Counted from the first letter of the whole stretch, positions 79-48,269 are shown. The stretch is DNA of 63,956 nucleotides, filler included, from Octopus bimaculoides (GCF_001194135.2; 5 parts of 5 records of this genome joined end to end with filler, not necessarily neighbours in it), one strand, 5' to 3'. The notes: a model not told the origin generated them from the letters alone. Made by a program: numbers and translations.

Positions 79-117
79 ACTGTTACTCAAGAGTTTCACG
101 TTCCCGTTCGTCATTTG
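79..117 (-). ncRNA. Degenerate minimal type I hammerhead ribozyme motif
   Basis: Minus strand reads ATGACGA-ACG GGAA CGT-GAAA-CTC TT GAG-TA-ACAG. Same family as the near-intact copy at 43494; C3 changed to A and 5' stem I lost. Confidence 0.55.
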
Positions 118-364
118 TGATATTTCTGCTGCTTTTTAATAAAGCATATTACTCTACCTCTGGTAGTTGAGTACTCTTTTTTTCCACATCGTTTCATATT
201 TATGTGCTTACTCCGGTATGTGTGTGTGTGTTCGCCCTGAAAATAGTTGTCTCTTGTAATATCTATGTTTGATTGCTTTTCCGAATGTGGATCGGAAATC
301 GCATACAGGTGGAGAAATATTGATTTCAAGCATTAACCATATATATATATATATACATTAACTA

Positions 365-790
365 TATATAAATATCAGTTGAGTACTTGGGTCGATATAA
401 TCAAGTAACCACCACTTCCCATGAACTTGCCGATCTTGTGCCAAAATTTGAAGTCAATATAGGGAAGAAGCAGCAGAATGGAAGGCACGCTGGGCAAAAT
501 GCCTAGCGGCATATCTTCCTAGTCTATGTTCTGAGTTTAAATTCCTCAGTGGTCAAGTCTATCTTTTATCTTTGCGAAGTTGATAAAATAAAGTGCCAGT
601 TAAGTACTACTGGGGTGAAAAGGATCGATTAATACCCTTCCCCTAAAATTGCTGGCATTGTGCCAAAATTTGAAGCAATTATTTAAGTTCAGTCATGGCG
701 ATGAGCTGACAGAATGGTTTCAGAGTCGGAAAAATCATTGTGGTATTTTACATTTTGAGTCCAAATCCCGCTGAGGCCAATTTTACCACA
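365..790 (+). mobile_element. Cluster of three degenerate SINE family B fragments
   Basis: Matches by eye to the family B body and tail (gagctg.cagaat, ttgagt.caaatccc, cttgtgccaaaatttgaa) seen in better copies at 35594 and 56463. Confidence 0.7.
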
Positions 791-1039
791 TTATGATCGA
801 ATGGTTATGAAATGCATTTTGCAACTACAAGATCCCGGGTTCGATTTCACTGCGCGAGGTATCTTGGACAAATTCACAAGTGTAACTTTTTGATATCCGT
901 TTTTAATATTGCAAGTAAAATGGGGTAAGTGCAAGTTGTCAGATAGATTGTACATGTGATTCAAAAGGTACAACCTTGTCATGCAGACTGTGTCATTTTG
1001 ATTCAGTCTGAGAATTGTGTTAAGGATGCATGTCTGCGG

Positions 1040-1120
1040 AACGCTCACGTTAATTCAAGAGCAGATTATTCAGTTGATCGAACAACTGGATCTTCATCGT
1101 CAAACGACGGAGATCCACCA
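1040..1120 (+). mobile_element. 3' remnant of SINE family C
   Basis: cacgttaattcaagagcagattattcagttgatcgaacaactgga...aacgacggag aligns with the tail of the full copy at 10611-10685. Confidence 0.65.
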
Positions 1121-2169
1121 CCACTGCCGCCACCATTAAAATGCAAGCATCGTTAAGCGGAGACTCAGCTTCCGGTGATGCAGTTTTGATTTCCGGTTTC
1201 AGCTATTTAACTCACGCAGTTAATACCAAATAAGAAAGGTATGAACGTCACAACATGCGACGTTTTCCCCATTGTGAATCTGCTTCAGTGTCCCTACAGA
1301 CAAAGAAAAAGAAAGAAACAAAGAAAGCCATAGATATAATTAATATATAAATGTAAGCATTATTGTAAGTTTAAGATATGAAGGGAGCAAGTTCTAACTC
1401 GCCCTCCGGTGGCAAAATACTCCTGGCGCTCGCTTGGTTTCCATTACATTCTATCTTTGCCTGCCCCCTTCATTCTCTCCCTCCTTCCTTCACACGCTTT
1501 CTAATCGTTTTATTTACTTATTTTATTATCCTTCACACTTTTTGTTTGTTTTTTATAATTCCTCTCTTCCTCATCTAAACAAGTCCTTCACTCACCTTCT
1601 CTGATCTATGTTGTTGTCATCAAGAAATGTGTTTATTTAAGCAATTCGTTGCCTTAGGGTAAAAACCAGCCAGAGTTTGAGGAAGACCTACGTGTGCTCC
1701 AGCTAATAAATGTGCGTCTGATTAGCGATAGAATTAGTTTTAAAAAAAAAACAACGTTATTGTGAAAGGATGTTAGTGAGAAACATAATACGGTATGACA
1801 TATTTACCAGGATACAGGACTGTCAAGGAGTTCGAGTCCAAACAGACTTCACCTTCATCGTCGCCTCAACGTATAACTTTCGCTGCATGGCTTTCACGGG
1901 CTTCTTAGTGTGTGTGTCGTGTCGGAAACAACATCTCTTTGGCCAACGAGTGGCCTGATAATTCTATTGTATGGAAGCCCTGCACATTTGACAAAACTTG
2001 CAGAGAAATACAGCTGTCATTTCATGTAAACTGATTTGTGTGTTATTGGGAAGGCTCCAATGCTTCTCCACCACATTGAAAATGTTGGCACACTGGAATG
2101 GTCAATGCCAGTCAGAATATATGCCACAGAAAGGAATCGCTCTGATTAGACTTCAACCACTATGTCACG

Positions 2170-45058: not shown

Positions 45059-46029
45059 NNNNNNNNNNNNNNNNNNNNNNNNNNNNNNNNNNNNNNNNNN
45101 NNNNNNNNNNNNNNNNNNNNNNNNNNNNNNNNNNNNNNNNNNNNNNNNNNNNNNNNNNNNNNNNNNNNNNNNNNNNNNNNNNNNNNNNNNNNNNNNNNNN
45201 NNNNNNNNNNNNNNNNNNNNNNNNNNNNNNNNNNNNNNNNNNNNNNNNNNNNNNNNNNNNNNNNNNNNNNNNNNNNNNNNNNNNNNNNNNNNNNNNNNNN
45301 NNNNNNNNNNNNNNNNNNNNNNNNNNNNNNNNNNNNNNNNNNNNNNNNNNNNNNNNNNNNNNNNNNNNNNNNNNNNNNNNNNNNNNNNNNNNNNNNNNNN
45401 NNNNNNNNNNNNNNNNNNNNNNNNNNNNNNNNNNNNNNNNNNNNNNNNNNNNNNNNNNNNNNNNNNNNNNNNNNNNNNNNNNNNNNNNNNNNNNNNNNNN
45501 NNNCACGTTTCTTTATACAAAATCCCATGTTAAAATATATATTTATAGAGGCATGTTACTATATATATATATATATATATGATTATTTGTCCCTTTCTCT
45601 CTTTATTTAAGCATGTGTACGTAAGCACACACATATATATATGTATGTATATGTGTGTGTATGTGTGTGTTTACACGAATGTGTGTGTATGACAAAAAGA
45701 TAAGTGCACATAGAACCACACACAGACATATACCCTAACACCTTAGTGCAGCCATACACACACACACACACACACCGAGGCGCGTTTCCAGATAACAGTA
45801 TCTTCCATAGTTGCAAGGCAATGTTCGAACCAATTCAAGACTGGAAAATAAGTCAAACCAAATACGATTTGATAAACAAGTTTAACCTTAAAACTTCCTC
45901 ACAAATGAAACACAACTGACTTCTTTTACAACCATTTCGTCGTTCCTCTCTTTCTTCCTCTCTTTGCCACCTTTTCTTTCTTTTTTTTCTTTTTTGTTGT
46001 TCTTGTTGTTATTGTTCTGTCTTCTTTTT

Positions 46030-46436
46030 CCTCCTCTTTGTTGTTGTTGTTGTTCGCTTTCTTCTTCTTCGCTTTCTTCATCTTCGCTTTCTTCTTCTTC
46101 TTCTTCTTCTTTGCTTTCTTCTTCTTCTTCGCTTTCTTCTTCTTCTTCGCTTTCTTCTTCTTCTTTGCTTGCTTATTCTTCTTCTTCGCTTTCTTCTTCT
46201 TTGCTTTCTTCTTCTTCTTCTTCGCTTTCTTCTTTGCTTTCTTCTTCTTTGCTTTCTTCTTCTTTGCTTTCTTCTTCTTTGCTTTCTTCTTCTTCGCTTT
46301 CTTCTTCTTCGCTTTCTTCTTCTTCGCTTTCTTCTTCTTCTTCGCTTTCTTCTTCTTCTTTGCTTTCTTCTTCTTCTTTGCTTTCTTCTTCTTCTTCTTT
46401 GCTTTCTTCTTCTTCTTCTTTGCTTTCTTCTTCTTC
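46030..46436. repeat. (TTC)n punctuated by GCT every few triplets
   Basis: About 26 units of gct(ttc)3-6 with ttt variants. Confidence 0.92.
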
Positions 46437-46654
46437 TATCACTTTTCTCCTTTCAAATTTCGTGTTAGTTTTTTTCCTCCACACACACACATATATATAT
46501 ATATGTGTGTGTGTGTGTGTGTGTGTGTGTGTGTGTGTGATATATATTTTTCTTTTCTTTTATCCTCCACCGATAGCAAAGATGTTCGTTTCAAAGCCCC
46601 CGCTAGCTGCCGTGACCCGTAACCGACCGTAGGTCACACTTCACAGCTACTCAC

Positions 46655-46698
46655 GTCGACTATGGCTTGTCTCCAAGCCAGCCTCAAGATACTGGACA
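46655..46698 (-). other. Candidate internal exon (unverified)
   Basis: Polypyrimidine tract plus CAG acceptor, GAC|GTGAGT donor, 44 nt; open as VQYLEAGLETSHSR or SSILRLAWRQAIVD. Confidence 0.25.
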
Positions 46699-48232
46699 CT
46701 GTCCAATGTAAAGGAGAGGAGAGGACGGAGATGATGATGATGATGATGGTGGTGGTGGTGGAGAGGAAGGGAGGCGGGAACATTGCGAATTTCAAAGATG
46801 GCTGAATTTATCATACAATAACATTTTCGCGCATGCGCACACAGACACGTACACAAAGATGAGCCAGTGTACGTGTGTATATATATATATATATATATGT
46901 GTGTATGTGTATGTATATATATATATATATATATGTGTGTATGTGTATGTATATATATATATGTGTGTATGTGTATGTATATATATATATATGTGTGTAT
47001 GTGTATGTATATATATATATATGTGTGTGCGTATATATGTATGTGTGTGCGTATATATATACATGTGTGTGTATATATATATGTGTGTGTGTGTATTTGC
47101 GTAGATATACATTTGCAAGTATAGACACTGTATGTGTGTGTGTATATGTATGTGTATATATATATATATATATATATATATATATGCATACATGATAAGC
47201 ATACATATATATAGATATTTGAGTATACATGAACAGATATACATACATACATACATATATATATATNNNNNNNNNNNNNNNNNNNNNNNNNNNNNNNNNN
47301 NNNNNNNNNNNNNNNNNNNNNNNNNNNNNNNNNNNNNNNNNNNNNNNNNNNNNNNNNNNNNNNNNNNNNNNNNNNNNNNNNNNNNNNNNNNNNNNNNNNN
47401 NNNNNNNNNNNNNNNNNNNNNNNNNNNNNNNNNNNNNNNNNNNNNNNNNNNNNNNNNNNNNNNNNNNNNNNNNNNNNNNNNNNNNNNNNNNNNNNNNNNN
47501 NNNNNNNNNNNNNNNNNNNNNNNNNNNNNNNNNNNNNNNNNNNNNNNNNNNNNNNNNNNNNNNNNNNNNNNNNNNNNNNNNNNNNNNNNNNNNNNNNNNN
47601 NNNNNNNNNNNNNNNNNNNNNNNNNNNNNNNNNNNNNNNNNNNNNNNNNNNNNNNNNNNNNNNNNNNNNNNNNNNNNNNNNNNNNNNNNNNNNNNNNNNN
47701 NNNNNNNNNNNNNNNNNNNNNNNNNNNNNNNNNNNNNNNNNNNNNNNNNNNNNNNNNNNNNNNNNNNNNNNNNNNNNNCTCTCTCTCTCTCTCTCTCTCT
47801 CTCTCTCTCTCACTTTGATTCTTTGTTGCTCTTCACTAGTCACATTTAGGGATTCTATATTTGTCACATACTGTGACACAGAGAGATATACGTGCGTACA
47901 TACACACATGCATACCGTCATACATATATAGTTTCACACATACATACATGCGTACATTTTTTTCATACATACATGTATGCATGTTTAAATACGCACATGT
48001 GCAGGCGCAAACATGCATACATGAATAATACATGCATGCATACAATTATACGTACATGTAGATAACCTGAAAAAACTGTCATATATACACAGATCACTAT
48101 GCATATTCACTTAATTTTGTATGTATATATGTGCGTGTGTGTATATATATATATATATATATATATATATATATATATATGATTGACCGTTGACTGAACA
48201 CTATTCAATTTTTTTTCTCCTTGTCTCCGTAT

Positions 48233-48269
48233 TCTTTCTGTTGAAGAGCGTAGCTCGAAACGTCAAAGA
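48233..48269 (+). ncRNA. Degenerate hammerhead motif in a Penelope-like tail
   Basis: TCTTT-CTG(ttg)AAGA-gcgtagctc-GAAA-CG-TC-AAAGA. Stem I TCTTT/AAAGA; core carries a 3-nt insertion. Confidence 0.5.

Follow-up and report, generated by a model that had tools for sequence, protein, structure and literature searches.

Hammerhead ribozyme motifs in an Octopus bimaculoides sequence as probable 3′ ends of Penelope-like elements and short non-coding passengers

The hammerhead motifs dispersed along a 63,956-nucleotide stretch of Octopus bimaculoides DNA (GCF_001194135.2; five parts joined end to end with filler; hereafter the window) are genuine, occur far above chance frequency and are mostly broken. 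They reside in short dispersed repeats, and we consider it quite probable that they represent the 3′ ends of Penelope-like elements (PLEs), together with short non-coding passengers using the same enzymes. The families are additions to a known repeat class described in many animals. A first-pass annotation had presented them as a hidden layer, a reading that is not supported, as such motifs were already published (PMC8557442 and PMC4209133).

Results

Census of the motifs and comparison with shuffled sequence

Hammerhead-like sequence was present at all 12 places listed in the first-pass annotation (11 coordinates, with 26809 counted on both strands), and a 13th motif was detected at 22029(−). 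Using a strict descriptor, we obtained 2 matches in the window and none in each of 40 shuffles, and a descriptor with one core mismatch gave 4 matches versus 0.2 ± 0.6 in shuffles. With a graded score, devised post hoc when the motifs were already known, eight motifs reached at least 22 compared with a mean of 0.03 (maximum, 1) per shuffle in 100 dinucleotide shuffles made from the 46 kb remaining after simple-repeat masking, in agreement with the annotation's claim that the hits are not due to chance. Seven of these eight had been annotated, and the eighth, 22029(−), was new. Five of the 12 scored below 22 and were identified by homology (114−, 38302−, 3043− and both arms at 26830). Four further candidates were dropped as no better than chance: 61433−, 44297−, 27167+ (score, 17.1, with 0.7 such matches expected per window) and a stretch around 40266 that resembles the core.

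The annotation had assigned the full layout to every motif, while a complete core with three stems was found in only 2 of the 12 (6282+ and 43498+). Four others combined an intact core with a broken stem (3470+, 38333+, 30258+ and 3043−), and six had an altered core (114−, 38302−, 40605+, 48238+, 26847+ and 26846−). Thus, the core (C3 U4 G5 A6 N7 G8 A9, G12 A13 A14, A15.1-U16.1 and H17) was intact in 6 of 12, and the core or a stem was damaged in 10 of 12. The cut sites were placed as predicted, with H17 at 6314, 30288 and 43527. The proposed density of one motif per approximately 5 kb holds when all 13 motifs are counted (one per 4.5 kb of non-N sequence) but not for the two intact ones (one per 29 kb).

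Stem III self-duplexes had energies of −4.6 to −10.1 kcal/mol in 8 of 11 motifs (the two 26830 arms left out), while the single-copy hairpin energy was 0 for every scored motif, indicating that stem III does not fold within one copy. Dimeric PLE hammerheads were reportedly described by Lunse et al. in 2017. No tandem same-strand partner was found in the window, the close pairs all being on opposite strands, and the nearest same-strand homologues, 6282 and 38333, lie 32 kb apart. Since no same-family pair on one strand is closer than this, dimer formation on a single transcript is unlikely. The ribozymes at these loci are predicted to be inactive. Folding z-scores were modest in six of eight motifs tested.

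Family F1

The F1 features in the window are as follows.

6240..6490 (+): F1 copy of about 250 bp, from contig matches and homology; other copies extend upstream of 6239
6276..6320 (+): intact F1 type I hammerhead (C3 6282, H17 6314); score 30.3; strict descriptor
38090..38310 (−): left arm of a 221-bp inverted F1 pair; hammerhead with G5A (C3 38302, H17 38270); 195/221 identical to the right arm
38325..38545 (+): right arm of the pair; core and stem I intact, stem III palindrome lost (C3 38333, H17 38365); score 22.5

The hammerhead at 6282 possesses a 6-bp stem I, a stem II flanked on either side by one unpaired base, and a near-palindromic stem III. These unpaired bases were considered as a new variant and dropped, as they are present in PLE-X1_cBra and many Hydra elements. 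The copies at 6282 and 38333 are identical at 143 of 211 positions, and three of their six stem I pairs are altered on both sides. The different stems of unrelated families, which the annotation had read as covariation, do not constitute it. The three F1 copies, 221 to 250 bp in the window and continuing further upstream elsewhere, share a 3′ end about 175 to 180 nt past the cut site and differ at their 5′ ends. F1 matched 471 and 413 contigs at ≥80% identity in two organisms. In about 6% of two RNA runs, 22 and 31 reads matched F1, on both strands; none of these 53 reached ≥95%, indicating that the reads came from other copies. No RNA joint was seen among the F1 matches listed, from a library type that may lose circles. 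A looser F1 pattern hit 54 metagenome loci; BLAST showed no similarity between any of them and the window families, and these were taken as chance.

As far as its window copies extend, F1 resembles the metazoan non-LTR retrozymes (Cervera and de la Pena 2020, PMC7229834; Li et al. 2026, bioRxiv 10.64898/2026.07.22.740005) in being non-coding, structured and a few hundred bases long; a retrozyme unit would span 150 to 450 bp. F1 carries a near-canonical type I hammerhead, dispersed monomers are common among retrozymes, and axolotl HHR_Amex2 provides a precedent for the F1 mismatch at the stem II base. F1 differs from them in its low RNA depth and in lacking a tandem repeat in the window. A PLE origin has been proposed for metazoan retrozymes. 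F1 is more likely a retrozyme-type passenger.

Family F2

Two loci in the window carry F2.

48..113 (−): left arm of locus 79; hammerhead from U4 on plus 36 nt past the cut site; adjoins (TA)n; 65/71 identical to 43487-43562
114..216 (+): right arm of locus 79, by homology; begins 8 nt past the cut-site position; 72-nt tail at 145-216; adjoins TA/(TG)n
43487..43565 (+): F2 copy with intact hammerhead (C3 43498, H17 43527); score 28.3; strict descriptor

At 43498, stem I is formed by 43494-43497 with 43528-43531, and the copy stops about 36 nt past the cut site, followed by an A-rich stretch and (TG)n. In the left-arm motif of locus 79 (114−), C3 is missing, as is the 5′ strand of stem I. The two arms of this locus are arranged head to head, flanked on both sides by (TA)n/(TG)n, and end 36 and 110 nt past the cut site; the 72-nt tail is missing from the left arm and, in contig matches, recurs as loose ends after other F2 copies.

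F2 matched 2033, 2021 and 1846 contigs in three organisms, and its depth dropped about 400-fold across 43474-43500. Most matching contigs therefore stop at the 5′ edge of the ribozyme, where random 5′ truncation would give a slope. This boundary may reflect the fold-back of the 43498 copy itself, at 43466-43498, and not a true element end. Opposite-strand joints at the F2 stem I edge recurred in all three DNA runs. Contigs of two organisms span 43467-43568, including the local fold-back, so this insertion may predate their split. Common variants among those listed for the F2 core region were U4C, changes at N7 and at the one-base loop of stem III, and an A-to-G substitution in stem I after which the bases still pair as U-G. 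None of 224 F2 RNA reads reached ≥99% identity, indicating that they too derived from other copies. An exact F2 core pattern gave no match in the viral, metagenome and prokaryote collections.

The annotation had suggested RNA 5′ ends at 6315 and 43528, among others, as a check. No pile-up of read ends was seen at either position in three Illumina cDNA runs, a weak test because such libraries show these ends poorly.

F3, F4 and single motifs

The remaining motifs are listed below.

2987..3060 (−): decayed F3 hammerhead (C3 3043, H17 3010); core and stem III palindrome kept, stems I and II decayed; 52/73 identical to the 3470 copy
3451..3525 (+): F3 hammerhead (C3 3470, H17 3502); intact core, intact stem II and intact, extended stem I; score 28.0
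21973..22034 (−): hammerhead (C3 22029, H17 21978); core with U4C, stem I of 5 bp, stem III a perfect palindrome of 8 nt; score 28.2
26807..26846 (−): F4 left arm, a decayed half with C3, U4 and U16.1 changed; by homology
26847..26889 (+): F4 right arm, decayed hammerhead with U4G (H17 26881); by homology
30252..30294 (+): hammerhead (C3 30258, H17 30288); core and stem III palindrome kept, stem I lost; score 23.5
40599..40661 (+): hammerhead (H17 40655); core with C3G, stem I of 6 bp, stem II long, stem III of Hydra type; score 30.6
48233..48269 (+): textbook minimal hammerhead of the GAAACGUC type with A6U (C3 48238, H17 48264); score 22.9

The F3 motif at 3470+ stands head to head with 3043−, about 430 bp away; its stem III reads CCGA, not CCGG, which breaks pair 15.2-16.2. 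In F4, the head-to-head junction sits at the 5′ edge of the core, and the arms resemble only each other (24/32 identical). The motif at 30258 resembles F1 over the core only (32/36), and that at 40605 has a folding z of −3.45 with (TA)n soon after its 3′ end. F3, 22029, 30258 and 48238 are known here from their window copies alone. A search of RNA runs with 2760-4900 returned no RNA run among the matches listed, a result that was not counted as evidence.

Searches for a coding partner

We queried Pfam with 436 stop-to-stop frames of at least 42 aa outside simple repeats. None matched a reverse transcriptase or GIY-YIG family, and five gave weak, below-cut-off matches of other kinds. Short PLE protein motifs across the window produced isolated, unclustered matches, two of which we take to be ends of restriction-like-endonuclease LINEs. 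As far as Pfam and short motifs can tell, a PLE open reading frame (ORF; telomerase-like reverse transcriptase plus C-terminal GIY-YIG) is absent from the window, as the annotation had stated, and this is what clipped ends are expected to show; faint ORF remnants are possible. The annotation's description of the families as non-coding holds to that extent, but each may be the clipped end of a coding element. No tandem repeat unit of the retrozyme type was found in the window.

Comparison with published PLE hammerheads

Hydra is a clade of C-terminal-endonuclease PLEs, including a hammerhead-bearing element from octopus, and almost all of its families insert into (TA)n (Craig 2021, PMC8557442). 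Among 24 Hydra elements whose hammerhead lies 3′, the distance from the cut site to the element end is 30 to 50 nt in 10 and 65 to 160 nt in 12. The window motifs resemble these elements in the type I hammerhead and its position close to the 3′ end, a palindromic stem III with four-base arms and a one-base centre, similar end distances (30-50 or 65-160 nt), (TA)n targets and inverted truncated copies. The motifs at 43498, 79 and 40605, each a Hydra-type hammerhead near the 3′ end, fit the published table. Hydra-2_aMil shares with 43498 an identical 4-bp stem I, stem III arms and H17; the stem III of Hydra-1_aJap and Hydra-2_aJap is identical to that of 43498, and the stem III of Hydra-2_aMil and Penelope-16_HM to that of 40605. 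In contrast, the window motifs are without an ORF, F2 stem II is unlike that of any listed element, every table row has U at core position 4 where most F2 relatives have C, and Hydra-1_Obim, the one published octopus Hydra element, has a hammerhead unlike all window motifs. Six 12- to 14-mers of the window had no match in the PMC8557442 supplement, where line breaks could hide one.

(TA)n lies on both sides of locus 79 and within 14 to 35 nt on the 3′ side of 43498, 40605 and 26830; no (TA)n insertion was found for F1, F3, 22029 or 30258. In a post hoc comparison of small numbers, the four loci with a Hydra-type stem III were 2 to 35 nt from a (TA), (TG) or (CA) run, versus at least 49 nt for the other seven. 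Inverted 5′-truncated copies, junction palindromes and one-sided tails constitute the published PLE footprint. Locus 79 has both an inverted 5′-truncated copy and a one-sided tail, although this tail, at 72 nt, exceeds the usual 30 to 40 bp; 26830 and 38320 are inverted pairs with no tail seen. Judged by these sequence features, F2 likely represents Hydra-clade-like element ends, and 40605 and 26830 probably do so as well.

Poseidon-Ac of Anolis (Frangieh et al. 2024, PMC11167929) and Adineta Pen2a (Arkhipova et al. 2013, PMC3846280) likewise have ends with and without a tail and an inverted pLTR head to head. In these systems, two internal starts of reverse transcription yield the two kinds of end, and uncut RNA is the main template, with no RNA-seq reads ending at the cut site; for Poseidon-Ac, cutting is not needed for insertion in vitro (PMC11167929). 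Locus 79 differs in its longer tail, and no ORF start is assignable at the ribozyme.

Cervera and de la Pena 2014 (PMC4209133) describe thousands of minimal hammerheads per metazoan genome, mostly single and probably from truncated PLEs, with some opposite-strand pairs 100 to 700 bp apart; cephalopods are not named in the consulted parts of their table and alignment. As there, the window has several families, mostly single and far from ORFs, a palindromic 15.2-16.2 region and opposite-strand pairs within 100 to 700 bp, and 48238 shows the commonest GAAACGUC form. Compared with that study, most window motifs have a longer stem III (6 to 9 nt), and the local density looks higher than its counts would suggest, ours being one selected window. 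Overall, the annotation was supported in reading the motifs as type I hammerheads, palindromic in stem III, that belong to several mobile families tied to PLEs or retrozymes.

Discussion

We propose that the RNA of each element would carry a type I hammerhead near its 3′ end, with a palindromic stem III forming only between two copies, a property established for this hammerhead class. After a nick made by the PLE endonuclease in AT-rich or (TA)n DNA, reverse transcription would begin at either of two internal sites downstream of the ribozyme, leaving ends with or without a tail. Two such sites have been demonstrated in vitro for a lizard PLE, and the ends of locus 79 are the seen counterpart of this step. 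Copying may often halt at or near the ribozyme hairpin, whereupon two short products would join head to head; such joints are observed at 79, 26830 and 38320, their cause being inferred. Later decay would account for the damaged copies.

A rather improbable alternative is that every family is a self-standing non-coding element, retrozyme or SINE-like, whose RNA begins at the ribozyme, is cut, perhaps circularised, and is copied as a unit. The sharp F2 boundary at the stem I edge would suit this, as would the canonical F1 geometry (a 6-bp stem I containing an internal loop, and a short stem II capped by 4 to 6 nt), the structured F1 3′ flanks with compensatory changes between copies, the 350- to 390-bp size of mussel retrozymes and the lack of a nearby ORF. 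However, the window holds no tandem unit, and the RNA reads are few, fall on both strands and derive from other copies, whereas mussel retrozyme circles are reported to be abundant. Moreover, the motif, end distance and target of F2 agree with those of the ends of coding Hydra PLEs, and its boundary may stem from the fold-back. For F1 alone, a self-standing element has roughly an even chance, and it is included in our preferred explanation. Observations counting against PLE ends are the missing coding partner, the F2 depth cliff, the longer tail and the dissimilarity to the Hydra-1_Obim hammerhead.

That the host keeps some motifs as working ribozymes cutting pre-mRNAs or non-coding transcripts is very unlikely: two motifs are intact and the 43498 insertion may be old, but most are damaged, a single copy cannot form stem III and no same-strand partner lies nearby, no host exon was identified, and read ends do not accumulate at 6315 or 43528 (a weak test). 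Chance matches in AT-rich, hairpin-prone DNA are hardly credible at all. In two focused scans (2780-6900 and 42480-43690, with four motifs between them), no Rfam hammerhead model matched up to E 10, nor did one appear among the best 150 of 314 whole-window matches, a list swamped by microsatellites; low-scoring motifs lay within or below the shuffle range, and folding was modest. Against this stand the shuffle comparisons, which refute a chance origin for the eight top motifs, the hundreds to thousands of homologous contigs and the agreement with published PLE hammerheads.

Most F1 and F2 relatives, and the 22029 core, carry C instead of U at core position 4. U4C as a novelty was dropped, being a known natural variant allowed by a published descriptor. 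A bolder scenario, which we hold to be unlikely but worth stating, is that F2 is an ORF-less element of about 145 nt starting at its own hammerhead, which Hydra-clade enzymes have multiplied into thousands or even tens of thousands of copies; that F2 and the unrelated F1 share a deliberately slow U4C core missed by CUGANGA searches; that canonical-looking copies are partly products of CpG decay; and that this genome is among the most ribozyme-dense in animals. If so, slow cutting would leave uncut RNA for copying, with a minority processed.

The probable PLE ends and passengers add repeat families to a known class, and their stumps can occur every few kilobases in Octopus bimaculoides. Their importance would be greater if the majority U4C core and the fixed F2 5′ edge hold genome-wide, in which case the role of PLE hammerheads would be testable on thousands of natural copies, by comparing start with cut site and core type.

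Detection and integrity of the hammerhead motifs

A type I hammerhead descriptor was run on both strands of the window, the strict form demanding a full core, a stem I of at least 4 bp, a stem II of at least 3 bp, and a paired 15.2-16.2. This revealed two matches, 6282+ and 43498+ (motifs are named by the position of C3 and the strand), versus none in 40 of 40 dinucleotide shuffles, and four matches with one core mismatch allowed, versus 0.2 ± 0.6 in shuffles. On a graded score, which was devised after the motifs had been seen, eight motifs reached at least 22, versus 0.03 (maximum, 1) in 100 shuffles, and the next score dropped to 17. 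Seven of these eight are among the 12 motifs listed in the first-pass annotation, the remaining five of which are supported by homology and not by score; the eighth was new:

21973-22034, minus strand: well-formed hammerhead with a U4C core (22029-), absent from that list, found by descriptor and graded score

Seven of the listed hammerheads stand above shuffled background. The full layout claimed for the list is present in only 2 of 12; in four the core is intact and a stem is broken, and six carry core changes. No Rfam hammerhead model was matched in focused scans or among the whole-window matches listed. At 27161-27216 (+), a stretch resembling the core, with (AAT)n after it, scored 17.1, which is within chance; it may be one more decayed end of an element.

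Families and their surroundings

Four repeat families carry most of the motifs. F1 comprises 6282+, 38333+, and 38302-; 6282 and 38333 share 143 of 211 nucleotides, reaching about 175 to 180 nt beyond the cut site, with both sides altered in 3 of 6 stem I pairs. F2 comprises 43498+ and 114- (65/71 identical), F3 comprises 3470+ and 3043- (52/73), and F4 is an inverted pair at 26807-26889, while 22029, 30258, 40605, and 48238 are single copy within the window.

The window as a whole is AT-rich, animal-type DNA (5,543 N; 157 tandem-repeat rows) with few kinds of dispersed repeat, each in many copies, and the public runs matching it come mainly from organism A, with minor shares from B, C, and D. 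SINE-like copies, 70 to 96% identical and often interrupted by microsatellites, lie at 4918-6191, 8305-8683, 11202-11621, 21341-21722, 48503-48887, 57293-57710, and 63238-63925. A 109-bp tandem repeat at 51785-52079 (2.7 copies, 96% identical) gave no hammerhead core in the scans, and a distinct low-copy repeat (about 6 to 8 contigs per run) occupies 43330-43450, 5′ of the 43498 copy. Three sets of short frames, with no Pfam match, resemble the C-terminal ends of restriction-like-endonuclease LINEs, putatively of the Dong-R4 or Hero type:

about 25150-25330, minus strand: short frames
35840-36100, minus strand: short frames
44668-45057, plus strand: short frames

Copy number and core variants

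Public contigs were matched at 80% to 43330-43570 (F2) and 6195-6560 (F1). F2 gave 2,033 contigs in organism A, 2,021 in B, and 1,846 in C, and its summed core depth, which does not equal copy number, was near one million versus about 40 for one contig; this suggests thousands to tens of thousands of copies. F1 gave 471 contigs in organism A and 413 in B.

At core position 4, C was commoner than U among relatives of both unrelated families, in two organisms for F1 (position 6283, 68% of depth) and in three for F2 (position 43499, 87 to 94%). U4C occurs naturally and is slower, as the available text of PMC3088659 already documents. Among the variants listed, F2 otherwise varied in its core region at N7 and at the base in the middle of stem III; in stem I, an A to G retained a wobble pair. 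Among those of F1, position 6307 was C in 85 to 95%, which makes stem III perfectly palindromic, and G5 was A in about 13 to 15% of depth. The latter reveals CpG decay, and some U4 copies, the window ones perhaps among them, may hence be its products.

Probable relation to Penelope-like elements

In the supplement table of PMC8557442, Hydra-2_aMil, of the endonuclease-bearing Hydra clade of Penelope-like elements (PLEs), is identical to 43498 in stem I, in both arms of stem III, and at H17; Hydra-1_aJap and Hydra-2_aJap have a stem III identical to that of 43498, and the stem III of 40605 is common to Hydra-2_aMil and Penelope-16_HM. By the table values, published elements end 30 to 50 nt past the cut site in 10 of 24 cases and 65 to 160 nt past it in 12 of 24; the count omits two cases with the motif at the 5′ end, Penelope-18_HMa and the inverted copy within Penelope-13_HM. 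(TA)n is described there as the insertion target of almost all Hydra elements. Four window loci with a Hydra-type stem III have a dinucleotide run 2 to 35 nt from their end; at the other seven, such a run is at least 49 nt off on both sides. Against a Hydra link, the ribozyme of the published octopus element Hydra-1_Obim differs from the window motifs, six window words (12- to 14-mers) had no match in that supplement, where line breaks could hide one, and neither reverse transcriptase nor GIY-YIG was found by Pfam in 436 window frames or by a short-motif search. The last result bears out the earlier remark that no PLE ORF lies nearby.

F1 has a near-canonical hammerhead with structured flanks; its copies share a 3′ end and have no (TA)n target, and relatives elsewhere extend further upstream than the window copy. 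By analogy with elements in the accessible parts of PMC7229834 and bioRxiv 10.64898/2026.07.22.740005, these features fit a retrozyme-type passenger; no tandem unit or circle of F1 was seen.

Inverted pairs and the F2 5′ edge

At locus 79, the inverted pair holding 114-, (TA)n is followed by a minus-strand arm with the ribozyme from U4, which stops 36 nt past the cut site, and by a plus-strand arm covering 8 to 110 nt past the cut-site position, then TA/(TG)n. Its extra 72 nt also occur behind other F2 copies as loose ends of contigs. The loci at 26830 and 38320 are likewise head-to-head pairs, joined at the ribozyme 5′ edge. Among F2 contigs, comparable joints between opposite strands appear in 3 of 3 DNA runs. 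The available text of PMC8557442 and PMC3846280 describes the footprint of endonuclease-bearing PLEs as truncated copies in inverted orientation, palindromes at the junctions, and a tail on one side, and a one-sided tail would follow from two internal reverse-transcription starts (PMC11167929, in part).

F2 depth in run X3 falls from 322,667 at 43492-43500 to 8,931 at 43483-43491 and 765 at 43474-43482, and agreement among the loose ends in this stretch is poor (0.42 to 0.53 in six of seven rows listed). This sharp edge could mark a short element beginning at the ribozyme, could reflect copying that often stops or folds back at the hairpin, or could be due solely to the 43498 copy's own fold-back. 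A small perfect fold-back at 43466-43498 directly precedes that ribozyme; it is spanned by contigs from organisms B and C as well, so the insertion may be common to the species.

RNA and activity

In the folding predictions, stem III forms in no single copy and would pair with that of a second copy; transcripts of close opposite-strand pairs would form a long hairpin and no dimer. RNA reads numbered 22 and 31 for F1 and 224 for F2, on both strands (from about 6% of three runs). None of the 53 F1 reads was at least 95% identical to the window copy, and 15 of 224 F2 reads were 95 to 99% identical, none higher; nearly all stem from other copies. The RNA ends anticipated by the first-pass annotation did not emerge as a pile-up in F1 or F2 reads, such libraries being a weak test. 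At 43517, 43544, 43558, and 43560, A>G or T>C occurred in 26 to 58% of RNA reads (run X23) and in less than 1% of organism A DNA depth, as A-to-I editing in hairpin RNA would give. A>C, A>T, and T>G, also RNA only, were present at about 25 to 30%, which suggests that one diverged expressed copy could account for part of the pattern.

The motifs are real, mostly decayed, and reside in repeat families of known kind. A hidden layer is not supported: the text available from PMC4209133 had already described abundant minimal hammerheads of several families, thousands per genome and mostly single, with truncated PLEs as their probable source. Octopus vulgaris has 31 recently active Penelope-like families, according to the part of PMC13282606 available. 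Among the literature matches listed for octopus or cephalopod hammerheads or retrozymes, only PMC8557442, available in part, was relevant; these particular families may therefore be undescribed as ribozyme carriers.
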